From: an uncultured bacterium
GTDB lineage: Bacteria; Bacteroidota; Bacteroidia; Bacteroidales; Bacteroidaceae
Assembly: GCA_945829425.1 (NCBI GenBank)
Contig: CALZUQ010000007.1
Coordinates: forward strand, 2,077 to 66,076
Length of the DNA stretch: 64,000 bases
Direction: 5' to 3'
The notes under the pieces were generated by a model, which was not told the origin of the DNA, did no database searches, and saw only the letters and a program-made list of their open reading frames with translations. Shown in pieces: positions 39,156-51,932 of the stretch (position 1 is the stretch's first letter; each line of letters starts with the position of its first letter). The translations under genes were made by a program, and so were the position numbers.

Positions 39156-40226
39156 CTACTTCTTTGCTTCCGTTTTCAGATACAGGCCGTTAAGGTCATG
39201 ATAGAAGAGCGTGCGCTTGTCGTTATATAACTTCATGAAGTCTGAGACATCAGGACTGCCGGGATAAGGACAAGCCGAAAGGATATTTCCTCCTGTGCCA
39301 CTGTTCTCACGGAACAAAGCGTAGCATAAGGGAGCGGAAGTTACGAAAGGAAGCACCTGCCCACTCCAATATGTAGAGTCTTTTGGAAAGTAATCACCCA
39401 TAGTAACCCCCACAGCAACATGCGTATTGTCGGAATATGCTGCAAAAGTCTTCAGGCTTTCAGTGAGATGACTCCAACGCTCTGCGGTATTCTCGTCAGA
39501 TGTAGCCTGCTGGACGGCAAAGTCTATCACTGCAACGTCGTCCGGGAGATATTCTGGCATCCTTGCCGTCTCGTTGTCAGAGAACGAACACCCCATAACA
39601 ATATTAACCACTCCAAGGTCATATAGCCTTTTCTCTACATCACTATACAAGGTACGATATTCTTCCGCAGACAGCGTCACATACCATTCTTCATCGCCAA
39701 GAGGCATGAGAATCAGTACGACAGGAGATTTCTTGCCATATCCGTCCTCCAAAGAGTTGAGGAAATCCGCCATTGATGCAATGACGTCATCACGGTCGGT
39801 ATCGTCTGTCGCCTCAGGCATTATCCAACGTAGCAGCACGAGACCTCCTCGCCGTGTCGTGGCAAGTATGTCACTACGCAACAGTTCCAACGGCATGCCC
39901 GAATTGTCCATGCCACTTCTAACGTCAGAGACTTCATAACCCGTACATGCCGTGAAGTCACCGCAGACACACTTTATGTCACTGCGAAGGGAGTCGCCCT
40001 CCCACCCCACTCCACATAGAGTGGTATACATCTGACCGAAGAGGACACCCTTGGTATGTAAGGTCTTCAGGTTCTCCTGCATATTCTCTGTCTGGACAGT
40101 CTTCCCCGACTCGCCTATCTCTTCGTATGATTTCTTTCCTTTTCCACCGCACGAGAGTAAAGCAAGAGACGTGAAGGCAGCAAGGCAAAGGACAGAGAAA
40201 GGGAAAAGATGATTTTTGGTTTTCAT
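39156..40226 (-). CDS. GH26-like lipoprotein lacking recognisable catalytic glutamates
   Basis: Lipobox LLSC; GVLFGQ..GVGW.GDS.RSDIK.VCGD and YPG..DF..YND..TLF..D..LY are GH26-like; the RPFHE position reads ILMPL and the ETG position reads TMG. Confidence 0.75.
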   Translation of the reverse strand: MKTKNHLFPFSVLCLAAFTSLALLSCGGKGKKSYEEIGESGKTVQTENMQENLKTLHTKGVLFGQMYTTLCGVGWEGDSLRSDIKCVCGDFTACTGYEVSDVRSGMDNSGMPLELLRSDILATTRRGGLVLLRWIMPEATDDTDRDDVIASMADFLNSLEDGYGKKSPVVLILMPLGDEEWYVTLSAEEYRTLYSDVEKRLYDLGVVNIVMGCSFSDNETARMPEYLPDDVAVIDFAVQQATSDENTAERWSHLTESLKTFAAYSDNTHVAVGVTMGDYFPKDSTYWSGQVLPFVTSAPLCYALFRENSGTGGNILSACPYPGSPDVSDFMKLYNDKRTLFYHDLNGLYLKTEAKK

Positions 40227-40355: not shown

Positions 40356-42704
40356 TTATTTCGAATAAGCAGCACGCATAGCCTCAACCGTTGAAGGAAG
40401 AGTCCACTGCGGAACCTTACGGTCGTTACCGTCGAATATGCTCATCCAATAGAATGTAGCTATTCCGAGTGCCTTTGCCCTTTTCACAATGTCAGCTGCC
40501 TGATCTGCTGCCGCCTGTTTCAACGTCTCAGACGAAGAGCCGTTTATCGTAACGTTGTTGCCATGAGGTCCATACTCGCCAATTATGCAAGGAATACCTT
40601 TTGAAACGAAGGTAGCATTCAGGCGGTCAAACATACGTCCTATCTCCGAGCTGCATGCCTCTGTCCACTTTCCGTAAGTATTCACCCAGTCATACGGGTC
40701 GTACGTATGCACCTGCACGGCGATATGTCCTTTCGTCTTGTCCTCCGGGATAGCGAGATTGTCGAGAACCTGCTGTCCGTGGGCTGCAGAATAAGTATTC
40801 ACGATGAGGTTGCGCGTAAGGTTATTGCCACCCGTGGCACGTACGGCATCGACAAAATCCTGTGCATAGCTGTTCAACGCTCCATAGCTTGCAGCAGACG
40901 CCGGCACCGACCACCTGTTCTGTGCGTCAAGCATCTCATTATAACCCTCAAAGAGAAGCTTGCTGCCATATCCCTGGAACCGTTGAGCTATCTGACGCCA
41001 CAGGTTTTTGAATCGTGAGCTGTTCTTCGCATGATTTGCTGCATCAGCCTTCACCCATTCCCATTCTTCCGTTCCGCTTCCAGTGTCATGATGAACATTC
41101 AGAATGCAATACATTCCTGTCGACATGACGTAATCGACCACCTCCTGCACACGTTTCATCCATGCCTCATCGACATTTCCTTCAGCGTCGATATGCTGCA
41201 CCCATGTCACAGGCACGCGGACAGCATTGAAGCCGCCGTCCTTCAAGAACTGCATCTGTTGCTGAGTAGCGAGAGGTTGTCCCCAGCACGTCTCGTATTT
41301 CGAGGTCTCCGGAAGGTTGTTTGGAATATAAGAGCCGAAGGCTTCAAGCGTATTGCCGAGATTGAAGCCAAGACCCATGTTACGTACGGCAGCTACCGCA
41401 CTCTCCTCAAAATATGTGGCGTTAAGGTCCACCTCATCACGTGTTATGACACAGTCCTGCGCCATAGCGTCCTTCCACCATTCCTCCGACGGCATGTTAC
41501 TGCCATACCACGGGCAGAACCACGCCCATGTCGCTCCGGCGTTCCATACGTCAGAGATCTTTGCGAAGCTGCCATCAGAAGAGTTTCCACATTCTGCCAG
41601 CGCAATGAGCTTATCGGGATAGCGTGCAGCAATCTCCTCATACTCCTGCCGGTTCTGTTCGGCAGACGAAGCATAGAGGTCGCGGCCTATGATGTCGACA
41701 TATTCGTTGCCAGGATACCACGCCGCATCGTTGTTATATTTCGTAGCGTCACCATTGTAGTTCTGTGTCGTCCATACCCATATAAGGTTATGCACGCCTT
41801 TCTGCTGGAAATATGAGAACATGGCTCTCCACAGCTGTTTGTAAGCCTCCGCGCCATCGTTTCCCCACCAGAACCAGCTCTTTGCCCAAGACTCGGCAGT
41901 CTTCAGCTCCGCGTTTCCCGCCGCCTCATGGAAGGGTCTCCATACAGCCGCAACGCCTTTCTCCTGCAGTTTCAACAGCACGTCAGCGACGAGGTCCATC
42001 TGTCCGTAGAACCATTTGTTCTCCCACGTGCCTTCCTTTACGGCATTGGCAGCACGGAACGTCGTCTTGTCCGGCGAGCATGTCACGCCGGAGCCGTCCT
42101 TGCCTATCACGGCACTCTCTGACGTCGGGACATTGAAATGCCACATAAGCTGCACAAGTCCACCGTCGTCCACCCAGCGAGTCACCGGCGAGATGTCGTT
42201 ATAGTCTATCCAGCCGTTGCCCTTCGGCACATAGACATGAATGAAGTCGAAGCAGTTGAAAGCCGGATATTTCCCCGTAGCCTTGAACACCTTCTCTGCC
42301 TCATTAGTGTTCCAGTTTACGTCAGCAAGGACAGAAGACAGGGTCTTCACGCCATAACACGACCTTACATACTTATACAGACGCTTGGCTGCTGTTGTTG
42401 CCATGGCGTCTGCAAGCGTGATGTCTGAGACATCGCTCTCCTTATATACGGAGAATGCCACGTTCTGAATATCATCGATTTGAAACGTCTCCCATGCACC
42501 GAAGTCCTCAAGACCTTTGATATACACCTCCATAGACGTTGGAGAGAACTTCAGAGAGCCCATAACGTCTGACGAGCCTGCAAGATTATATACGGAAGTC
42601 TTTCCGTTGCGCAAGGTTATGGTGACTTTGTCGCCTTCACGCTGTGCGAAAGCCGTCATTGTGACGAGGAGCGCGAAAAGAGTATAGATAATCTTCTTCA
42701 TCAT
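40356..42704 (-). CDS. Bifunctional GH26 beta-mannanase - GH5 (subfamily 4-like) endoglucanase
   Basis: SPI signal; GH26 WRPFHE, WFWWG, ALAECG; GH5 GFNLGNTL, HHD, FEGYNE, IGEYG; no C-terminal sorting domain. Confidence 0.93.
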   Translation of the reverse strand: MMKKIIYTLFALLVTMTAFAQREGDKVTITLRNGKTSVYNLAGSSDVMGSLKFSPTSMEVYIKGLEDFGAWETFQIDDIQNVAFSVYKESDVSDITLADAMATTAAKRLYKYVRSCYGVKTLSSVLADVNWNTNEAEKVFKATGKYPAFNCFDFIHVYVPKGNGWIDYNDISPVTRWVDDGGLVQLMWHFNVPTSESAVIGKDGSGVTCSPDKTTFRAANAVKEGTWENKWFYGQMDLVADVLLKLQEKGVAAVWRPFHEAAGNAELKTAESWAKSWFWWGNDGAEAYKQLWRAMFSYFQQKGVHNLIWVWTTQNYNGDATKYNNDAAWYPGNEYVDIIGRDLYASSAEQNRQEYEEIAARYPDKLIALAECGNSSDGSFAKISDVWNAGATWAWFCPWYGSNMPSEEWWKDAMAQDCVITRDEVDLNATYFEESAVAAVRNMGLGFNLGNTLEAFGSYIPNNLPETSKYETCWGQPLATQQQMQFLKDGGFNAVRVPVTWVQHIDAEGNVDEAWMKRVQEVVDYVMSTGMYCILNVHHDTGSGTEEWEWVKADAANHAKNSSRFKNLWRQIAQRFQGYGSKLLFEGYNEMLDAQNRWSVPASAASYGALNSYAQDFVDAVRATGGNNLTRNLIVNTYSAAHGQQVLDNLAIPEDKTKGHIAVQVHTYDPYDWVNTYGKWTEACSSEIGRMFDRLNATFVSKGIPCIIGEYGPHGNNVTINGSSSETLKQAAADQAADIVKRAKALGIATFYWMSIFDGNDRKVPQWTLPSTVEAMRAAYSK

Positions 42705-43153
42705 CTTATGATTTTAATGTTTCTTCCTGCCGCCTTGATAATGGTGACTCCGGAAGGTAGTGACTTCAGTGATACGGCAGTACCACTGCCAGACTTTGTA
42801 TATTGAATGCTGACAGCCTTGCCGTCAGCAGTAAACGCTTCTACATTGACAGGAGAAGAAAAGAGCAAGGTATCTCCATTACGTACGATGTCTGGATTGT
42901 TCATGACACCGTCTATTCCCGATGTCTCAGCGAAAGAGAATGACAAGACATCGGCAAGTGTGTACTGTGTCGTGGCTACGGAAGTCGTCACCACGAGTTT
43001 GTCGTCGGCTACGCTTACCTCCGGCTTTTCCGCCAGGAGGAAGGTCTGTGTCGTGCCGTTGTCAAAGAGTATGACAAGGCTCTTAACCTCTCCAGCCGCT
43101 GCCATGCGCAACGTGAAGCAGAGTGAGAGTAGTAGTAAGGAGAGTTTTTTCAT
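42701..43153 (-). CDS. Small secreted protein: ~60-aa beta-rich module plus T9SS type-A-like CTD
   Basis: Signal peptide; TSGIDGV linker; C-terminus SLKSLPSGVTIIKAAGRNIKIIR; ATGA overlap with the GH26-GH5 gene. Confidence 0.8.
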   Translation of the reverse strand: MKKLSLLLLSLCFTLRMAAAGEVKSLVILFDNGTTQTFLLAEKPEVSVADDKLVVTTSVATTQYTLADVLSFSFAETSGIDGVMNNPDIVRNGDTLLFSSPVNVEAFTADGKAVSIQYTKSGSGTAVSLKSLPSGVTIIKAAGRNIKIIR

Positions 43154-43180: not shown

Positions 43181-43227
43181 AAGGGACAGGCTCTTGGTCC
43201 CGCAGAAGAGATTAGTGCCTGTCCCTT
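43181..43227 (-). terminator. Terminator/attenuator-like hairpin inside the PUL
   Basis: AAGGGACAGGC...GCCTGTCCCTT (11 bp) with an inner CTCTT/AAGAG stem; reads into a T-run on the minus strand. Confidence 0.7.
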
Positions 43228-43261: not shown

Positions 43262-45274
43262 TTATGGAAGAATAGTCATCTTCTTAACACCTGCAAGGTC
43301 GCCCTGAAGTATAAGCGCCGTGTCGCTCCATCCGTCAGCGATGTTATTGACAGCGTCCATGAAAGCGTCGTCAACAACCCATTCAATTCTCTCAACAGAG
43401 CCGTCCCAGTCAGCAATTGTATATATGCCGCCCCAGTTAGCATTGTTAATCTGTATCTGTCCTGTTATGCCGGCAGTCTTATATACTATGATCTTTGACT
43501 TGCCAGCCTGGAGGTTCATAGCCTTGAGGTCGGTCTTGAAGATACGCATCTTTCCGGAAGAATCGCTCCAAGAGAAATTGAACGGCCATGACACAAGACC
43601 TGTCTGCTGCTCGTCCTTCGCAAAGGTAGCAAAGTCTATCTCCGGCACGTCTACGACTGTCTTTCCTGACACTATCCTTGCGCCGTCAGGAGTAACAAAG
43701 GTTATTTCAACCTCTCCTGTAGCCATCTCAGGCACCTGGAATGTTATCTCGTCATTGGTCTTTGAGAGTATCTTCACGACTTTCACTGAGCCAAGGTATA
43801 TAGCCTCAACGTTGTAGAAGTTCTTTCCCTTGAGTGTAGCGTTCTCACCAATAATCATCTTCTGCGGAGCCTCAGAGATTGCCGGCTCTGTAGCAGCCTG
43901 TATGGTCAGACCAGAAGCCTCTACCGAAGTGCCGTTCTTGAGGTTGAGGACAAGTCCGGAGCCGGCACATGCTGTAGGCACGGTGAGGGCGATAGCCTTC
44001 TCGTTATGTGCTGCGAACTCTGTGACTGTCTGCGCCGGGTCTCCCGGAAGTGTCACGCTTGCCACGAGGTCGAGGTCACTACCTTTTATGATAACCTTAT
44101 TACCAGCCACGAGAGCATTAGGAGTACACTCTGTGACAACAGGCTTTACGAGCGTGTAAGCCACCGTAACCTGCTTGCCGTTGGCGAGAGAGAGAGTTAT
44201 GTCGCCTTCCTGAGCCGCCTCAGGCACTACAGCCACCACCTTTGCGGCAGCTACCGACTTCAACTCTCCGCCAGCGTTAGGGAATGCTATTGCTGTCACG
44301 AGGTCGAGGTCTTTACCAGATACTGTAACCTCTGCGCCGTTCTTGACAGGAGCAGGAGCTGCTACGAGTTCTGTAGGCACTACAGTCTCTATGCTTCCGG
44401 CAGGTATCTTTATTCCGGAGAAGGTCACGAGCGTCACCTCTCCGTCGGTTGCCGTTGCCGGGAGCGCGAAGATGAGCGTATTGCCGTCGGCAGAAGCCTT
44501 GATGCCGTCACCCTCTATTTCCGCTCCGCTGAGCAAAACCTTCTCAATGAGCTGAAGCGTAGTACCTGTCACTGTCACCGTCTCGCCAGCCTTCATCTTC
44601 GCCGGAGCGACACCCGTGGCTGTAGGAAGCGCAATGTTTATGGACTCGTCAGCATAGAGCAGGTTCTCGCCGTCAGGATTTGTATCGCTGAGCATAGGGC
44701 GTCCTGTCTTTGCCTCGCGAGGAATAGCTACAGAGATAGTGTAGCGGTCGTGAGCCACGAAGTCTGCCTCCGGCACACGTACGTCGTCAGCGAACACCAC
44801 TTCGTGCATGAGGTTGAGGTAGTCGCCCTTGAATGTCACGATGTCTCCGACCTTACCGTTGAGGTTACCCTCCGAACCAACATATACTTTCTCGAGCACT
44901 ACGTTCTCCTCGTATGTCACCGGAGTAATAGTCTTTATCTCACCGCCTTTGGCTGTTATGAGCGTCACGATGCCCGGCTCACACTTTTCTTTTGGCACCT
45001 GTATCCATATCTCGCTGACTCTTCCTGCCGCTTTTACATCGATTACGGTTATAGGGTCAGCTCCCGGAAGGTTCACCTGTGTTATCTGGTCGAGATTGCT
45101 GCCGAGGAATTTCAGTGTTCCGCCGCGCAGTACGGGGCATGGACCGAAAGAGTTGAGCTTAATCTCATTTCCATACTGGTCTGTCACAAGGTCGTCCTCG
45201 CTGCAGGCTGTGAATGTCAGCCCGGCAAGCAGCATGACGCAAAGAGACCAGAATAATGACTGATATTTTTTCAT
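43262..45274 (-). CDS. Surface lipoprotein with tandem IPT/TIG-like domains (SGBP-like)
   Basis: Lipobox FTAC-SEDD; repeated P..G..VTV.G.DLDLV units; located downstream of susCD. Confidence 0.82.
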   Translation of the reverse strand: MKKYQSLFWSLCVMLLAGLTFTACSEDDLVTDQYGNEIKLNSFGPCPVLRGGTLKFLGSNLDQITQVNLPGADPITVIDVKAAGRVSEIWIQVPKEKCEPGIVTLITAKGGEIKTITPVTYEENVVLEKVYVGSEGNLNGKVGDIVTFKGDYLNLMHEVVFADDVRVPEADFVAHDRYTISVAIPREAKTGRPMLSDTNPDGENLLYADESINIALPTATGVAPAKMKAGETVTVTGTTLQLIEKVLLSGAEIEGDGIKASADGNTLIFALPATATDGEVTLVTFSGIKIPAGSIETVVPTELVAAPAPVKNGAEVTVSGKDLDLVTAIAFPNAGGELKSVAAAKVVAVVPEAAQEGDITLSLANGKQVTVAYTLVKPVVTECTPNALVAGNKVIIKGSDLDLVASVTLPGDPAQTVTEFAAHNEKAIALTVPTACAGSGLVLNLKNGTSVEASGLTIQAATEPAISEAPQKMIIGENATLKGKNFYNVEAIYLGSVKVVKILSKTNDEITFQVPEMATGEVEITFVTPDGARIVSGKTVVDVPEIDFATFAKDEQQTGLVSWPFNFSWSDSSGKMRIFKTDLKAMNLQAGKSKIIVYKTAGITGQIQINNANWGGIYTIADWDGSVERIEWVVDDAFMDAVNNIADGWSDTALILQGDLAGVKKMTILP

Positions 45275-45363: not shown

Positions 45364-46680
45364 CTATTTGTTAGGCACGGCACGGATATTGTCTATCTTG
45401 ATGATTGGGTGACAATCCTCTCCTTCGTAACCACCGCCGTTGACGCAGAATATCGTCAGCGAAGCGAAGTCGTCCGGTTTGCTGGGCTTTACAGAAGCCG
45501 CCGTTCCGTCCCAATACTTATTGAAGACTCCATGTTCTCCGCCGAGCGGCAGAGTGACAGTAACCCATTTTCCGCTTGTATGATAAGCTCCGGCACCTTT
45601 CCAAGGAGCGTAGATGGCGCGTCCCCAGCCGTCATCAGCGTGGAAGAACGTGTTGTTGGCTGTAGAGATTGTCACCTTGTCAGGACCTGCGAAGATTACC
45701 TGCATAGGCGCTGCCGCCCAGGCACCGTTCTCAGGAATGCACATCTCAAACTTCAGCGACATGTTCTCGTAGTCGGTAAAGTCCACGATATCGTTGAGCT
45801 TAACACCGTCGCCACTGAAACCACCGTCCCAGTCGCCAGCCCAGTATTCAAACGAGAACGATCCGTCGTTCCAACCTCCGTCGGCACCCATATCCACGTC
45901 GCCGAGGAGTAGGTAGTTGCCGGAAAGCGATGTCTCGTCAGCCTGTATCTTCATCGCGTGCCATCCATGGTTTCCGAGGACAGCGTTTGTCACAGGGTTC
46001 GGTGTGTCGAAGTCAAAGAGAATGCCACGAGAGTCGTGGAACTGGAAGTTGCTTCGTGTCGTGCCATACTTGGTAGAAACCTTTATGAAACCCGCAGGAG
46101 CCTCTGCCGGCACGATGAAACGTATCTCATTCATCGTGATGCTTGTGATGTTCTCACGAGGCAGCACATAGTTGTTTGGGAACTCTATGCTGAGCGGATA
46201 GTCTGGATAGTCAAGGAAGTAGTTACCCTTTATGACGCCCTCCTCTCCTACACGTACCTGCTCGTTCTCCATAGCTATCACAGAAGGAGCATTTATAAGC
46301 ACCTTGAAGTCGTATGCCACGGTATCACGTGAGGTTGTAATCATATAGAGTTTGTCGGTCACCACCTCCGGAATGTCCTTAGGCACGGAGAGCAGTATGG
46401 TGTTGTCGGTCATATAGCTCGTATTGAGCGTTGCCGGACGGTCGTTGAAATTGATGGCAACGATGCTGCGCAGGTTGTTTCCGACAATACATATCGGGGT
46501 GTTCTGGAATGCTCCGGTAAGGAGGGAGTCCTTGCTCGCAGCGTCAGCAAGGCGTATGTACGAGATGGATGGCATTCCACCTGTTGACTCGTATGCATCA
46601 GGCTGGTCAGAGCATGATGTCATGCCAGCGACAGAAAGTAGCGTGATGCCGAGAGCCAGTTTTATATTCTTGATATTCAT
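45364..46680 (-). CDS. Surface glycan-binding lipoprotein (SGBP-B-like)
   Basis: Lipobox MTSC-SDQ; Ig-like N-terminal domains and an aromatic-rich C-terminal domain; directly after susD. Confidence 0.82.
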   Translation of the reverse strand: MNIKNIKLALGITLLSVAGMTSCSDQPDAYESTGGMPSISYIRLADAASKDSLLTGAFQNTPICIVGNNLRSIVAINFNDRPATLNTSYMTDNTILLSVPKDIPEVVTDKLYMITTSRDTVAYDFKVLINAPSVIAMENEQVRVGEEGVIKGNYFLDYPDYPLSIEFPNNYVLPRENITSITMNEIRFIVPAEAPAGFIKVSTKYGTTRSNFQFHDSRGILFDFDTPNPVTNAVLGNHGWHAMKIQADETSLSGNYLLLGDVDMGADGGWNDGSFSFEYWAGDWDGGFSGDGVKLNDIVDFTDYENMSLKFEMCIPENGAWAAAPMQVIFAGPDKVTISTANNTFFHADDGWGRAIYAPWKGAGAYHTSGKWVTVTLPLGGEHGVFNKYWDGTAASVKPSKPDDFASLTIFCVNGGGYEGEDCHPIIKIDNIRAVPNK

Positions 46681-46755: not shown

Positions 46756-48495
46756 TTAATAGCCGTATGTTGCGCGCACGTCAACATGCACTGGCTCTAC
46801 GTTGCTGCCGAGGTTAGGATTGACAGAAACATCCTCTGTCGGGAAAGGAATAGAGAATGTAGCCTTTGTCACCGCAGGTACCGGTGTCGAGGAGTCATAC
46901 TCTGCCCCAGAAGCATCCCATACGCCTGTCTCGAAGTACACCTTATATACCTCAGAGAGGTTCCACCATGCATTACGTTTCTGAGCCTTGATCTCTGCTA
47001 TGCAAGCATCGACATCGTAATATGAGCGGCGTACGAAGTCATACCAGCGGTCGCCCTCTCCGGCAAACTCCAGTCGGCGCTCCTTCCATACGTCGTCGAA
47101 CGTAATGGAGGTCTTCGGAGTATATCCGGAGACAGAACGTCCGCGCACGGCGTTGAACGCCTCGAGCGCCTTGGCGTTTGTGGTCTGTCCGCCGTCGAGG
47201 AGTGTCTGTGACTCTGCGAGCACGAGATATACGTCAGCAAGACGGAGGATATGCGTAGCCACGGCGTTTCTCATACGTGACGCTGGCACTCCCAGCTCTG
47301 CCACATGGTCGTTGTTGTTGCCGTAAGCATGCTTTACGTTCTGTGCTCCGCAAGGTCCCTGGAATGTTCCTGTTGCAGCAGGGTTATAGTCCTTGTCGAA
47401 GTAGAAATGCAGTATCTCAAATCCGTTCTGTCCGTTTCCGAGGCTGTGGTCGCGCCAGAAGTATGGATATACGTCGCCAGGGAGCATGATTGTAGCCTTA
47501 CGGCGTATGTCGACGTCTATGCGGTCAGTAGGAGAGTCGGTAGGCTTCACGCCGAAAGCCGCCATGATGTCGACTGAAGGTCCGCCCCAACCGCCCCAGC
47601 AGTCACCGTTCTCGTCGAAGCCCTCCGGCATGAGGTCGCTCTGCAGCGTGTTCTGTGATGTCCACTGTGCGCCGATTGTCCAGCGCCATGCTATGAGACT
47701 CTCGTCAGAGACGTTGTTTGAGCCTCGGAAGATATCCTCGAAGTTTGCCATGAGCTTGCGTCCGGAGTTGTCGACAACGTCCTTGGCATAGGTGACAGCC
47801 TTTTGGAGGTCGTCGTTGTTCAGCGAGCCAGAGACGCCCGCCTTGGTAAGATAGACCTTTGCGAGGAGAGCCTCAGCGCAGTAGTAGTCCATGTGGCCGT
47901 TGGTGAGTTTCTGCTTGGGCAGGAGTTCCATGGCCTTTTCGAGTGTCATGATGATGTATTCATATACGTCAGCCTTCTGCACCTTGCTGCAGTGCTTGTA
48001 TTCGCCGGAGGCGAGAACCTCTGAGGTGTTGTGGATGATAGGCACATCGCCGAATGAGCGTACGAGGTAGAAGTATGCCATGGCCTTCCATATAAGACAT
48101 TCGCCCTGGCACTGCTTAATGGTCGCCTCTGATGCCGATGCTTTTCCGAGAGCCTGATAAACGGTGTTGCAATGTCCTATCTCAGCCCAAAGCGAGTACG
48201 ACATGTTTACGAGGTCCTGGTCAGTGCCGTTTACGGAGAAGTTGAGGTATGGACAGTTGCCCATATACATATTGCCCGACATCACCTCACCCATCTTTAT
48301 GAATGCGCGCTGGAAGTCATACCAAGGTGAGTTGTACAGGTAGTTGACACCTGAAATGCAGGCAGCGTCTGACGCATAGTAGTTGTCGAGGTTGTAGTTA
48401 TCCTCAACAGGACGGTCAAGGAAGTCGTCGCACGAGGTCAGAGAGAAGCTTATTGCCGCTGCACATGCTAAATATTTTATATTCTTGAGTTTCAT
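46756..48495 (-). CDS. SusD/RagB lipoprotein
   Basis: Lipobox LTSC-DDFLDRP; YFYLVRSFGDVP; RLADVYL..AE; ERRLEFAGEGDRWYDFVR. Confidence 0.97.
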   Translation of the reverse strand: MKLKNIKYLACAAAISFSLTSCDDFLDRPVEDNYNLDNYYASDAACISGVNYLYNSPWYDFQRAFIKMGEVMSGNMYMGNCPYLNFSVNGTDQDLVNMSYSLWAEIGHCNTVYQALGKASASEATIKQCQGECLIWKAMAYFYLVRSFGDVPIIHNTSEVLASGEYKHCSKVQKADVYEYIIMTLEKAMELLPKQKLTNGHMDYYCAEALLAKVYLTKAGVSGSLNNDDLQKAVTYAKDVVDNSGRKLMANFEDIFRGSNNVSDESLIAWRWTIGAQWTSQNTLQSDLMPEGFDENGDCWGGWGGPSVDIMAAFGVKPTDSPTDRIDVDIRRKATIMLPGDVYPYFWRDHSLGNGQNGFEILHFYFDKDYNPAATGTFQGPCGAQNVKHAYGNNNDHVAELGVPASRMRNAVATHILRLADVYLVLAESQTLLDGGQTTNAKALEAFNAVRGRSVSGYTPKTSITFDDVWKERRLEFAGEGDRWYDFVRRSYYDVDACIAEIKAQKRNAWWNLSEVYKVYFETGVWDASGAEYDSSTPVPAVTKATFSIPFPTEDVSVNPNLGSNVEPVHVDVRATYGY

Positions 48496-48686: not shown

Positions 48687-51600
48687 TTAGAACGAAACGT
48701 TAAGTCCGAAGGTGAATGATGTAGGAGCAGGATAACGTCCGTTGTCAAGTCCGTAAACATTCTTGCTTGCTGTAGAAGCACCGATTTCCGGGTCGTATCC
48801 GTCGTAGCCTGTTATGGTGAGCAGGTTTGTGGCGTTGAGCGTCAGACGGAGGTTTGTAAGACCGAGACGGCTGATGAGCTTCTTGTCGAAGGTATAGCCG
48901 AGGGTGATGCTCTTCAGACGTACGTAGCTGCCGTTCTCTATGAAGCGGTCGCTCCATGCGTCGTTGTCGTTAGGGTCGTTTATAGAAGCGCGCGGGTAGA
49001 GAGCGTCAGGGTTTGATACGATGACGTTAGAGATGTCGTAAACCCAGTTGTCGCTCTTGGTGCCGTTCTTCGGTGCGAGCAGTGCGTGTCCTCCACAGTC
49101 GGCGAGCTGGTTCTGCCATGCAGAGTTCATGTGTGTGAGCTTCATCTTCATATAGTTACCGATCTTGTTGCCTATCGAACCGTTTATGAAGAGAGTAAGG
49201 TCGAAGTTCTTGTAGCGGAAGGTGTTGTTCCAGCCGAATGTCCACTTCGGCATTGGCGAGCCGATCTTTGTCTTGTCGTTCTCGTCGATGATGCCGTCAC
49301 CGTTGACGTCGACGTACTTCACGTCACCAACGTATGTCGTGGTCTTAGGGTTATAGTCGCCAGGATTTGTGCTCCATGACTTTGTCCCGTCGGCGTTTGT
49401 CACTATCGGGTTGCTCTTTGTCAGGGTGTTCACCGGCGAGTTGAGTATGTCCTCGAAGCTTGTGTACACGCCGTCGGTCTTATATCCGTAGAATGAGTAC
49501 AGTTGCTCACCTTCTGCCGAACGTGTAACCACGTCGGTCCACTGTCCGTTGCCTACGAGAGCCACGCCTCCGGCAAGGCTCTTCACCTTGTTGCTGTTGT
49601 GGGAGAAGTTGATGTCTGTGTCCCAGGAGAAGTCCTTGGTATGTATCGGGTGGGCTGTTACGGTAAGCTCAATACCTGAGTTCTCAATGTCGCCGTAGTT
49701 ACCCCAAGGTGCTGCGAGAGCTGACGAGCCGTTGCCGCCGGTACCCATTATTGAAGGCAATGTTAGCGGCATGAGCATGTCCTTTGACATCTTCTTGTAC
49801 CAGTCGACAGTGAAGCCGAGGTCGCCGTTGAAGAATCCGAGGTCAAGACCGATGTTCCACTGCTCCTGTGTCTCCCACTGTATGTCGAGGTTTGCCATGT
49901 TCGCCGGACGGTAGGACATGCCGAGAGCGGTGTCCATGGTAGACATTGCCGAGCCCCACTTATAGCTGCCTATGCTGGCGTTGCCTGTCTGACCCCATCC
50001 TAAGCGGAGCTTGCCGTTTGAGAGCCATTCTACGTCCTTGAGGAACGCCTCGTTGTTGAAGCGCCATGCGAGGGCTACAGAGTGGAAAGGAGCCCAACGC
50101 TTGTTAGGACCGAAGTTGGAGCTGCCGTCGTAACGGAATGTATAGGTAGCGAGGTAACGGTCGTCGTAGTTGTATGTCTCACGTGTGAAGAACGAAGCCA
50201 TGGCAGAAGAGCCAAAGCCGGAACCGATCTCCGCCTTGCCCGAACCGAGTGAAGGATTGTGGACAGCGTCACTTGGAAGACCTGTGTTGGAGACGGATAC
50301 GTAGTCGTATTTGCTCTCCCAGCACTCCTGACCGAGCATGGCTGTTATGGAGTGCTTGCCAAACTTCTCGTTCCAGGTAAGGTAGTTCTTGAGGGTCCAG
50401 TATGTCGATGAGTTCTTCTGTATGCGTCCGTTGTTGTTGTCGCGAACCCATGTTCCGAGGTCTACCTTCGGCTCGTATGTAGAACCCTTCGACCATGAGA
50501 GGTCCCAACCAAGTTCTGCGTGCCATACGAGATTTTTCAGGAAGCTCACCTCGGCGAATATCGAGCCGTTGAGTTTCTGACGGTCGAGGAGTATCTCGTT
50601 GAGCATAGCCATGGCGATAGGGTTAGGATTGGTAAATCCTTCTTTCGAGACGCTTGAATATCCACCGTCGATATTGTATATCTGAATGTCCGGAGGAGTG
50701 ATGAGCGAGTAGTTTATGATACCCTCGTCAGAGTCTGCGAGCTTCAGGTCGTCTGAAGTAGAAGAGTAAGAAGCGTTGAGACCGAGCTTGAGCCATGACT
50801 TCAGCTGAGCGTCGAGGTTGGCACGCAATCCGTAGCGCTGGAAGTTGGAGCCTATGATGGTACCTTCCTGGTTCATGAAGTTTCCGGAAACATAGTACTG
50901 CACCTTGTCTGTGCCGCCCTGTGCTGAAACCTGATGGTTGTGCTGCCATGCCGTGCGGAAGATGGCGTCCTGCCAGTTTGTTCCTATGCCGAGTACGGAA
51001 GGGTCGGAATACATAGGGTCGGCGCTGTTCTGACTTATCTCATACTGGTCGACAAGAGTGTTGTAATATGTAGCGAACTCACGCAGGTTCATCATGTCGA
51101 GACGCTTCATCTGACGTGACATCGTGACGGAGCCGTCGTATGTGAACTTCGCCTCTCCGCTCTTACCACGCTTGGTGGTGATGAGGACAACGCCGTTGGC
51201 ACCCTGTGCGCCGTAGATTGCCGTAGCAGAAGCATCCTTGAGGATTTCCATGCTCACGATGTCGGCAGGGTTGATAGTAGCGAGAGGAGAAACGGTTGAC
51301 ACGGAGCCGTTGCCGAGACGGTCGCCGAGTCCGAGGTCTGCACCACTCTGTGCGCTGCCCTGGAAGATAACACCGTCGACAACATAGAGAGGCTCGGCGC
51401 CGGCATTGATAGTAGCCTGACCGCGTACACGTATCGACTGGCTGGCACCCGGCGCACCTGATGTGGCGAAAGATGTCACACCTGCCACACGTCCCTGGAA
51501 CGCCTGGTCGATGTTGGTGATATTGCCCTCTTTGAGAGCCTTGTCGTCAAGAGTCGTTGAAGCTCCGGCGAGGTCAGAACGTTTCATCTTACCGTATCCG

Positions 51601-51932
51601 ACAACGACAGTCTCTTCAAGCATCTGCGCATCAGCCTTGAGGACAACGTTAACCTGCGTGCGTCCTGCAAGTTTTACATCCTGAGGCTGATAGCCTACAA
51701 ACGAGATACTCAGCGTAGCATTGGCGTTCTTCACCTTCAGCTGGAACTTTCCGTCCATGTCTGTGGCGACACCGTTCTGAGTACCTTTTTCACGCACTGT
51801 AGCGCCGAGGACAGGCCCGAACTCATCACTGACAGTACCGGTAACCTGCACCTGTGCCATCATTGATGCCGAGACGAGCATGAACAGCGCGAGTAACGCA
51901 AACTTAATGCTGAAACATTTTTCAGTCTTCAT
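48687..51932 (-). CDS. SusC/RagA TonB-dependent transporter
   Basis: EETVVVGYG, KDASATAIYGAQGANGVVLITTK, C-terminal YP..SFTFGLNVSF. Confidence 0.98.
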   Translation of the reverse strand: MKTEKCFSIKFALLALFMLVSASMMAQVQVTGTVSDEFGPVLGATVREKGTQNGVATDMDGKFQLKVKNANATLSISFVGYQPQDVKLAGRTQVNVVLKADAQMLEETVVVGYGKMKRSDLAGASTTLDDKALKEGNITNIDQAFQGRVAGVTSFATSGAPGASQSIRVRGQATINAGAEPLYVVDGVIFQGSAQSGADLGLGDRLGNGSVSTVSPLATINPADIVSMEILKDASATAIYGAQGANGVVLITTKRGKSGEAKFTYDGSVTMSRQMKRLDMMNLREFATYYNTLVDQYEISQNSADPMYSDPSVLGIGTNWQDAIFRTAWQHNHQVSAQGGTDKVQYYVSGNFMNQEGTIIGSNFQRYGLRANLDAQLKSWLKLGLNASYSSTSDDLKLADSDEGIINYSLITPPDIQIYNIDGGYSSVSKEGFTNPNPIAMAMLNEILLDRQKLNGSIFAEVSFLKNLVWHAELGWDLSWSKGSTYEPKVDLGTWVRDNNNGRIQKNSSTYWTLKNYLTWNEKFGKHSITAMLGQECWESKYDYVSVSNTGLPSDAVHNPSLGSGKAEIGSGFGSSAMASFFTRETYNYDDRYLATYTFRYDGSSNFGPNKRWAPFHSVALAWRFNNEAFLKDVEWLSNGKLRLGWGQTGNASIGSYKWGSAMSTMDTALGMSYRPANMANLDIQWETQEQWNIGLDLGFFNGDLGFTVDWYKKMSKDMLMPLTLPSIMGTGGNGSSALAAPWGNYGDIENSGIELTVTAHPIHTKDFSWDTDINFSHNSNKVKSLAGGVALVGNGQWTDVVTRSAEGEQLYSFYGYKTDGVYTSFEDILNSPVNTLTKSNPIVTNADGTKSWSTNPGDYNPKTTTYVGDVKYVDVNGDGIIDENDKTKIGSPMPKWTFGWNNTFRYKNFDLTLFINGSIGNKIGNYMKMKLTHMNSAWQNQLADCGGHALLAPKNGTKSDNWVYDISNVIVSNPDALYPRASINDPNDNDAWSDRFIENGSYVRLKSITLGYTFDKKLISRLGLTNLRLTLNATNLLTITGYDGYDPEIGASTASKNVYGLDNGRYPAPTSFTFGLNVSF

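Follow-up and report, generated by a model that had tools for sequence, protein, structure and literature searches.

A small type IX secretion cargo protein paired with tag-bearing, sorting-domain-less proteins across Bacteroidales: a candidate surface adaptor cassette

Introduction

Whether a protein is cargo of a type IX secretion system (T9SS), and where an enzyme encoded in a polysaccharide utilization locus (PUL) resides, is now predicted from the protein's own C-terminal sorting domain (CTD), lipobox or signal peptidase I (SPI) signal. Here, we describe a two-gene cassette that may call for a different prediction. It lies in a 64,000-nucleotide stretch of contig CALZUQ010000007.1 (positions 2,077 to 66,076; assembly GCA_945829425.1) from an uncultured member of the Bacteroidaceae; this stretch is called the window below. 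The first gene encodes a 150-amino-acid (aa) protein, S, which consists of a signal peptide, a small beta module and a T9SS sorting domain; the second encodes D, a GH26-GH5 glycanase with an SPI signal and no sorting domain. A preliminary description of the locus proposed that the two proteins share an N-terminal module through which S would carry D to the cell surface or anchor it there.

The closest described systems each resemble a part of this arrangement. PorA of Porphyromonas gingivalis is a small T9SS cargo protein that serves as a non-enzymatic ligand of the PorXY regulatory system (PMC12152298). In 'hitchhiker' export by the twin-arginine translocation (Tat) pathway, subunits that have no signal are exported in complex with a partner that has one (PMC9251779). 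The 'sentinel' enzyme GH26|GH5_4 of Segatella copri, the subject of a 2025 study, is an orthologue of D; it has an SPI signal and lacks Cys, and its N-terminal region is a 'DUF' of 60 residues that contains a Q-(T/V)-D-G motif (PMC12704710). The enzyme was argued to be extracellular and its surface anchoring was left unexplained, its N-terminal region being read as a BACON-like spacer; the same work describes a catalytically dead GH26B in S. copri PUL 7, and its discussion includes neither an upstream CTD gene nor a family-wide pairing (PMC12704710).

Compared with these systems, the window holds an arrangement in which the sorting domain and the enzyme are encoded by neighboring genes. Our data indicate that S and D very probably form a functionally linked, T9SS-associated cassette. 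The cassette is probably, as judged from sequence comparison and structure prediction, an undescribed way of bringing untagged proteins to the cell surface: the two-gene pair recurs across Bacteroidales with many different second proteins, and it therefore likely marks a new surface route.

Results

Architecture of S and D

The two genes lie on the minus strand and comprise the following features, which were delimited with open reading frames (ORFs), hidden Markov models (HMMs) and AlphaFold2 (AF2) models with their per-residue confidence (pLDDT).

42701-43153, minus strand: small protein S, 150 aa; ORF with signal peptide, beta module, linker and T9SS type-A CTD
43094-43153, minus strand: signal peptide of S, about residues 1-20, MKKLSLLLLSLCFTLRMAAA; from the sequence, with an AF2 helix at residues 3-16
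42923-43090, minus strand: S module, residues 22-77, with six beta strands; conservation in the family is highest here
42890-42922, minus strand: S linker and likely CTD cleavage region (ETS|GI), residues 78-88; AF2 pLDDT <70
42704-42889, minus strand: T9SS type-A CTD of S, residues 89-150; from HMMs and AF2
42701-42704, minus strand: ATGA stop/start overlap of S and D, read from the sequence; translational coupling
40356-42704, minus strand: GH26-GH5 enzyme D, 782 aa; ORF with SPI signal, without lipobox and without CTD
42441-42644, minus strand: N-terminal module of D, residues 21-88, two tag units; begins at the mature N-terminus Q21; AF2
41436-42407, minus strand: GH26 catalytic domain of D, residues 100-423; Pfam PF02156, E 3e-43
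40443-41306, minus strand: GH5 catalytic domain of D, residues 467-754; Pfam PF00150, E 3e-58

The module of S (about 55 aa) is an internal duplication of a unit of about 25 aa (LVILFDNGTTQTFLLAEKPEVSVA / LVVTTSVATTQYTLADVLSFSFA). In the AF2 model of S, which was built from a 31-sequence alignment and has a mean pLDDT of 85.9, the module forms six strands (residues 23-30, 35-40, 45-49, 52-56, 61-65 and 69-77; pLDDT 81-94) and the tail forms a sandwich of seven strands (residues 89-149; pLDDT 94-96). The N-terminal Sec signal peptide is conserved across the family, and so is a T-G-I motif that follows the module in the family alignment. As an Ile at position +2 of the cleavage site has been reported for Prevotella CTDs (PMC11969387), we infer that the CTD of S is cleaved at ETS|GI. 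Searches of Pfam and NCBIfam found the S module and the tag of D in neither collection, and the source annotations of ten S-family members were all 'hypothetical protein' or none.

The tail of S is a T9SS type-A CTD, although its own score against TIGR04183 falls below the curated cut-off. This assignment follows from three results: S paralogues score 23.5-27.3 bits, above the cut-off of 23; an HMM built from the paralogues' tails matches the S of the window at E 6e-10; and the AF2 model shows the seven-stranded fold. The paralogue-tail HMM also recovered, with C-terminal matches, the CTD proteins that TIGR04183 detects in this genome. Ig-like Foldseek matches of the S CTD were not significant.

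The genome from which the window comes has the machinery that such a tail implies, with a SprA_N match at E 1e-213 in a 2,604-aa ORF and at least 12 CTD proteins over the cut-off. The S module was found in 72 of the 301 genomes of the host's family. SprA was present in 70 of these 72 genomes versus 152 of the 229 S-negative ones (odds ratio 17.7; Fisher p 9e-9, a value that overstates independence because the genomes are related). Of the two S-positive genomes without SprA, one has a weak partial S match and the other is an 87%-complete metagenome-assembled genome (MAG).

The signal peptide of D (MMKKIIYTLFALLVTMTAFA|Q) is of the SPI type and contains no Cys. A lipobox Cys at +1, which an acidic LES motif follows in exported surface lipoproteins, was not found in D, and a Cys in or after the signal peptide was absent from nearly all downstream partners of the S family. 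As the GH26 and GH5 domains fill the chain, D has no room for a C-terminal sorting domain, and the paralogue-tail CTD HMM gave no match to it. The presence of both catalytic domains in one chain makes D a bimodular endo-glycanase by the Pfam test. In the AF2 model of its first 95 mature residues (pLDDT 89.2; predicted TM-score 0.65), the N-module of 65 aa forms six strands (mature positions 6-11, 16-20, 27-33, 37-42, 52-55 and 59-65). BACON profiles matched neither D at E <= 1 nor its N-module at E <= 10. The ORF coordinates, the anatomy of S, the ATGA overlap and the character of the enzyme (GH26-GH5, SPI, no lipoprotein Cys, no CTD) given in the preliminary description were all borne out by the ORFs, the sequence, Pfam and the CTD HMM.

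S genes are coupled to tag-bearing, CTD-less partners

To our profile of the S module, 2,658 clusters matched at E <= 1e-3 and 493 at E <= 1e-10 in a search of 1.84 billion representatives. Most S-family proteins are 140-165 aa long, with the module at residues ~25-75, and orthologues of the S of the window fall into 28 clusters, all of about 150 aa. The family also includes proteins with two modules and a CTD, as well as large proteins with one or two modules just before the CTD (e.g. P0043, P0050 and P0062). The S/partner cassette was found in 13 other Bacteroidales families and hardly occurs in 400 genomes sampled from the remainder of the phylum.

Gene adjacency was scored in 71 loci (L009-L079) from the 301-genome search, 65 of which have a complete S gene. 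The next co-directional gene overlapped S by 4 nucleotides (nt; ATGA) in 43 of the 65 and lay within 100 nt in 55. A second sample of 40 loci, taken from named uncultured rumen MAGs by a subfamily alignment search and overlapping partly with the first set, showed the same overlap in 28 and a distance within 100 nt in 37. All S orthologues with genomic context stand directly before the enzyme with the ATGA overlap, as on a human-gut contig of S. copri type (L139). At one locus (L005), the enzyme has no GH26 domain (GH5-only) and keeps both the N-module and the ATGA-coupled S.

The downstream proteins share a short N-terminal element. About 51 of 55 have a unit of the form h-x-h-x(3-5)-[DN]-G-x(4-6)-[FY]-x(3-5)-[IV]-D-S-[IV]-x-F, here called the tag, which is present once or twice and no more than a few residues from the A|Q signal-peptidase site; many have a single 25-aa unit and not the full module, and a Pro/Thr/Ser-rich linker often follows. 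A CTD was absent from 37 of the 38 complete downstream proteins, and the sole CTD-bearing one has no tag. Beyond the tag the partners are unrelated according to Pfam, with Lcl_C (9 cases), calycin-like (7) and Pur_ac_phosph_N (3) domains, single cases of SusD-like, Big_2 and EF-Tu domains 2-3, and in addition GH26 and a family of ~900 aa. Seen from the partner's side, S stood directly upstream of 24 of 32 scorable genes with the 'AFYIYRNDG' tag type (15 genomes), and of 20 out of 20 outside one genome in which these genes are expanded (G279). The window's own genome has one S and one clear tag-bearing protein, and the two are adjacent, with the architecture by which we define the cassette: a module-plus-CTD gene directly before the gene of an SPI, tag-bearing, CTD-less protein. 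The preliminary description had raised the question of whether such genes are systematically adjacent, and across these samples they are.

Two of the single-case partners are unusual. One, a secreted protein of 326 aa encoded at positions 1870-2850 of L018, has its signal peptide and the tag followed by clear matches to domains 2 and 3 of EF-Tu (Pfam 1e-15; NCBIfam EF-Tu 1e-46); the GTPase domain is absent, and it makes an odd export cargo. The other is SusD-like (PF12741, 1e-86) and has an SPI-type signal and the tag instead of a lipoprotein signal.

The S module and the tag are probably homologous

The mature N-termini of S and D had been aligned by eye in the preliminary description. Compared directly, the pair gives weak similarity: BLASTP aligned S and D at E 8e-4, with the signal peptide making up half of the alignment, and hhalign with narrow orthologue profiles (eight orthologues each) returned a probability of 5%. 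Diverse profiles (37 S modules versus 34 tag units) raised this to 79% (P 1.6e-5), placing the first half of the S module on the unit. Neither the S-module HMM nor the 26-aa tag HMM had an individually significant match among the other's proteins (best E 0.09 and 0.02). Their weak hits were strongly enriched in proteins of the other class: below the S gene itself, 8 of 17 hits of the S-module HMM were D proteins (55 D proteins in the 18,035-sequence database), and about 27 of the top ~45 on the weak list of the tag HMM were S proteins (65 S among ~18,000). The AF2 models of the two modules have the same six-strand pattern and the same strand spacing, including a short 3-10 turn before the last strand. 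Owing to the hhalign result, the enrichment of weak hits and the strand pattern, we consider that the two modules are built from a shared unit and very likely have a shared fold, and that they are probably homologous. The alignment by eye is weakly supported as a pairwise comparison and gains credibility with diverse profiles and matching strand patterns.

The suggestion that the module is Sm/SH3-like agrees with the weak Foldseek matches of both models, none of which is significant: the D module matched YgdR (TM 0.76, target-normalised) and Hfq (0.45-0.6) at E 0.04-0.2, and the S model matched Hfq with a target TM of about 0.47 (E 0.1-0.2).

Some candidate relatives were discarded. Weak NCBIfam matches to the N-terminus of long-form PorU were rejected, as the N-terminus of this genome's PorU is without the unit and the matches rest on signal peptides. 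Weak matches within the same genome, on contigs C43 and C52, were dismissed after inspection.

A proposed adaptor model for S and D

On these sequence-based data we lean, with some reserve, towards a model in which the module of S binds the tag of D, so that S carries D out of the cell, holds it at the surface, or both. We infer S-D binding, co-translocation, CTD cleavage and linkage to lipopolysaccharide (LPS) in the following sequence. S would enter the periplasm via Sec, its CTD would take it through the SprA translocon, and the PorU sortase would cut off the CTD and link the remaining module of ~58 residues to surface LPS. D would reach the periplasm by its ordinary signal peptide, without a lipid anchor or sorting domain. 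The S module would bind the N-terminal tag of D, probably by edge-strand pairing of small Sm/SH3-like barrels, after which D would be exported from the periplasm together with S, retained at the surface by S, or both. At the locus in the window, this would place an endo-acting GH26-GH5 mannanase/beta-glucanase outside the cell, beside the SusC/D importer.

We favor this model because one protein supplies the export signal and the other the function, and because translational coupling persists over second proteins that are unrelated to one another. The tag lies right at the N-terminus, often with a Pro/Thr/Ser-rich linker after it, the module is confined to CTD (or dockerin) contexts, and an endo-glycanase that attacks polymers needs an outside location; each of these points also argues for an adaptor. 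A more general form of the model is possible, and we offer it only tentatively: a modular T9SS docking system, in which a module of ~55 residues, borne by a minimal CTD protein or by tandem scaffolds, would capture a 25-residue tag, export the folded hetero-complex and tether it non-covalently to LPS.

Several observations weigh against the adaptor model. The tail of S itself scores 17 bits against TIGR04183, whose curated cut-off is 23 (E 0.004, residues 86-141), and Foldseek searches of the Protein Data Bank gave no significant match for either module model (E 0.01-0.2). Ten of the 65 complete S genes have no adjacent partner, and the downstream proteins of L011 and L020 have no tag. The expanded genome G279, a rumen MAG, contains 17 copies of the ~900-aa 'AFYIYRNDG' protein, at least 8 of them without S upstream; several copies lie at the ends of contigs, a sign that the regions may be repeated or collapsed. 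The existence of S genes and of tag-bearing genes without the other points either to action in trans among proteins of one tag class or to a looser tie between the two proteins. In addition, the similarity of the first half of the S module to the tag was no higher within pairs than between pairs (p 0.34), a result that argues against recent local duplication or gene conversion and from which specificity gains no support. In a Mantel test, the correlation of S-module and tag distances (r 0.24) was not above that of the S-CTD/tag control (r 0.26). The pair tests therefore show no co-evolution signal beyond shared ancestry. Finally, we know of no case in which export of a hetero-complex through the T9SS has been shown, and our literature search on piggy-back, hitchhiking, CTD-less or partner-dependent T9SS export found no description.

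The pair-test results, together with the S genes and tag-bearing genes that stand alone, fit a different explanation, in which the N-terminal unit is a domain for binding a ligand or the envelope (LPS, an outer-membrane protein or a glycan), or a spacer, and each protein uses it independently. S would then be a small surface protein that originated when the 5' end of a gene with the tag was joined to a CTD, and S and D would be co-expressed without binding each other. The construction of the S module and the tag from one unit is as expected under this explanation, as is the occurrence of the module inside large CTD proteins with Big_2 or PPC-like domains, often twice and in a stalk-like manner; it would also match the view of the enzyme's N-terminus as a BACON-like spacer (PMC12704710). 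We nevertheless regard independent use as unlikely. It does not explain how SPI-only, CTD-less proteins cross the outer membrane, why ATGA-coupled adjacency extends over at least 14 families and unrelated partners, why the CTD-bearing partner is the tagless one, or how the enzyme reaches the outside location that it needs. A spacer need not sit exactly at the mature N-terminus, and the Pfam searches gave no BACON or other match.

A protein with an SPI signal and no other is predicted to be periplasmic, translational coupling is in keeping with a stoichiometric chaperone, and periplasmic GH26 enzymes do occur in Bacteroides mannan PULs. D might thus stay in the periplasm, where S would bind the tag transiently as a chaperone, inhibitor or stoichiometric regulator and would then be cleared alone by the T9SS or serve an unrelated role at the surface. 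This seems improbable to us, since an endo-acting enzyme has to be outside the cell to act on polymeric glucomannan, xylan or mixed-linkage glucan (PMC12704710 gives the activity data). Adhesin-like Lcl_C, Big_2 and SusD-like proteins, a set typical of the cell surface, are moreover found among the partners, and why a periplasmic chaperone should bear a secretion and anchoring domain is not obvious. The complementary distribution of the CTD is likewise left unexplained by a periplasmic D. That the resemblance and adjacency of S and D at this locus are coincidental and reflect no functional link is extremely improbable. The marginal pairwise and narrow-profile similarity would allow it, but it is effectively refuted by the comparative data, that is, by the family-wide pairing, the overlap, the presence of the tag and the complementary distribution of the CTD, as well as by the conservation of S at the protein level.

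Gene neighborhood of the cassette

The minus strand of the window encodes a mannan/beta-glucan PUL that runs from SusC through a 356-aa lipoprotein, as shown by Pfam and the ORFs. Besides the S and D genes, it comprises the following features.

48687-51932, minus strand: SusC, upstream PUL gene
46756-48495, minus strand: SusD, upstream PUL gene
45364-46680, minus strand: protein resembling surface glycan-binding protein B (SGBP-B-like), upstream PUL gene
43262-45274, minus strand: TIG-domain lipoprotein, upstream PUL gene, the last before the hairpin and S
43181-43227, minus strand: terminator-like hairpin between the TIG lipoprotein gene and S, from folding energy
39156-40226, minus strand: 356-aa lipoprotein, downstream of D; ORF with lipobox LLSC

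The order of the upstream PUL genes is unchanged in L002 and L139. The hairpin noted in the preliminary description is real, with a folding energy of -24.3 kcal/mol (z -5.0) and a following UUUUU run. Hairpins also lie between the TIG gene and S in L139 (8422-8551), L002 (7902-8000) and L010 (1334-1443); those of the four loci have z values of -4 to -6, differ in sequence and are followed by a U run in some cases only. A possible role for the hairpin before S is internal termination or attenuation; alternatively, it may act on RNA stability and so fix the balance between the transport genes and the enzyme genes. Metatranscriptome contigs cover parts of the PUL thinly, and the small ORF of S lies outside the covered parts.

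The 356-aa lipoprotein had no Pfam match. It occupies the position of the inactive GH26B of S. copri PUL 7 and bears the lipobox LLSC, versus the SPI signal given for S. copri GH26B (PMC12704710). A homologue of its gene follows the enzyme in L139.

Variant architectures

Several members of the S family and their neighbors depart from the common layout. In the S variants of L030, L043 and L144, dockerin-like Ca-binding repeats (DVNGDGKVDISDIVAVIN, twice) lie between the signal peptide and the module. P0070 is composed of Big_2, module, Big_2 and module, with a C-terminal dockerin in place of the CTD. On the reverse complement of L013 (2-1258), a C10-type peptidase with a C-terminal dockerin adjoins a module-bearing gene.

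Fusions were also observed. A 323-aa ORF in L144 (G207:C6, 2095-3066, minus strand) runs in frame from the S module into the ~900-aa partner at its mature N-terminus (…GEHILF|DAFYIYRNDG…); the CTD and the signal peptide of the partner were lost by the deletion, and farther downstream the frame is broken. This ORF represents a pseudogene, an error of the assembly or a naturally occurring cis fusion. In L013 and L052 (G254), proteins of 580-611 aa start with a full S-type module and a third unit (EFIRFADGQAYPLSRVKNI), no small gene lies upstream, and the gene that follows also starts with the tag; this looks like a cis arrangement of module and tag. A candidate for a distant form of the cassette beyond Bacteroidales lies in L081 (G601), from another family of the phylum: the first protein, of 222 aa, combines one unit with a Big_2 domain and a CTD-like tail, and the next, of 451 aa, opens with three tag-like units.

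Discussion

Should the adaptor model prove true, with small CTD proteins lending their signal to neighbors, a protein's own signals would not always tell its location. The T9SS secretomes of Prevotella, Segatella and other Bacteroidales would be under-counted, many 'periplasmic' calls for glycanases, adhesin-like proteins and binding proteins would be wrong, and the T9SS translocon would have to accept hetero-complexes. The model would also answer how S. copri GH26|GH5_4, a target of microbiota-directed food, is held outside the cell (PMC12704710), and in its more general form it would mean that a logic like that of cohesin and dockerin operates in Gram-negative Bacteroidales, including on the 'sentinel' glycanase of Segatella/Prevotella. 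As the tag and the module are short and modular, they might be of use for surface display in Bacteroidales.

Among the known systems close to S is the canonical type-A CTD cargo, exemplified by the gingipain RgpB and by the cargo of Prevotella intermedia (PMC11969387). S shares with it the Sec signal, the seven-stranded CTD, a G-I after the likely cleavage site and a genome with a T9SS. On most features, namely the signal peptide, the fold and the T9SS in the genome, S qualifies as a T9SS type-A cargo. It differs from canonical cargo in that its passenger is only the module of ~55 aa, with no enzymatic or adhesin domain, whereas the functional protein is separate and has no CTD. PorA sets a precedent for a small CTD protein whose role is interaction with another protein; in contrast to S, it signals to a two-component system and is not paired gene by gene with diverse secreted proteins. 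The S. copri GH26|GH5_4 'DUF' is a counterpart on the side of D: the enzyme is orthologous, has the same N-terminal region with Q-(T/V)-D-G at the start of the tag, and at the L139 locus S is present.

The likeness to cohesin and dockerin is a functional analogy only, with a short tag on diverse enzymes and a module on an anchored protein, and scaffoldin-like versions of S exist in multi-module (P0040, P0044 and P0050) and dockerin-bearing forms (P0070, L030 and L144). The module and the tag do not belong to the cohesin and dockerin families: they have no Pfam match, and the S module is a barrel-like structure of 55 aa and six strands, whereas cohesin is a jelly-roll of ~150 aa. Unlike dockerin, the tag is N-terminal and has neither the duplicated Ca-binding repeat of 22 residues nor a D-x-D-x-D loop, and its binding to the module is our proposal; only some S variants have true dockerin-like repeats, as an additional element. 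The anchor of S, compared with that of the cellulosome, would be provided by the T9SS/LPS route. The best structural matches of both modules are Sm/Hfq proteins and YgdI/YgdR (DUF903), and Sm barrels associate by their edge strands; the Foldseek scores fall short of significance, however, and the modules have no sequence similarity to these proteins, no Sm motif and no lipoprotein signal.

In Tat hitchhiking, too, one partner bears the export signal for a folded complex and the genes are often adjacent. It differs in the membrane, the machinery and the position of the signal, and nothing equivalent has been reported for the T9SS. Viewed against these systems, S is probably, on the evidence of its sequence and its gene partners, a T9SS cargo protein turned adaptor, with an unannotated pair of tag and module; if co-export of complexes is confirmed, it will deserve a category of its own.

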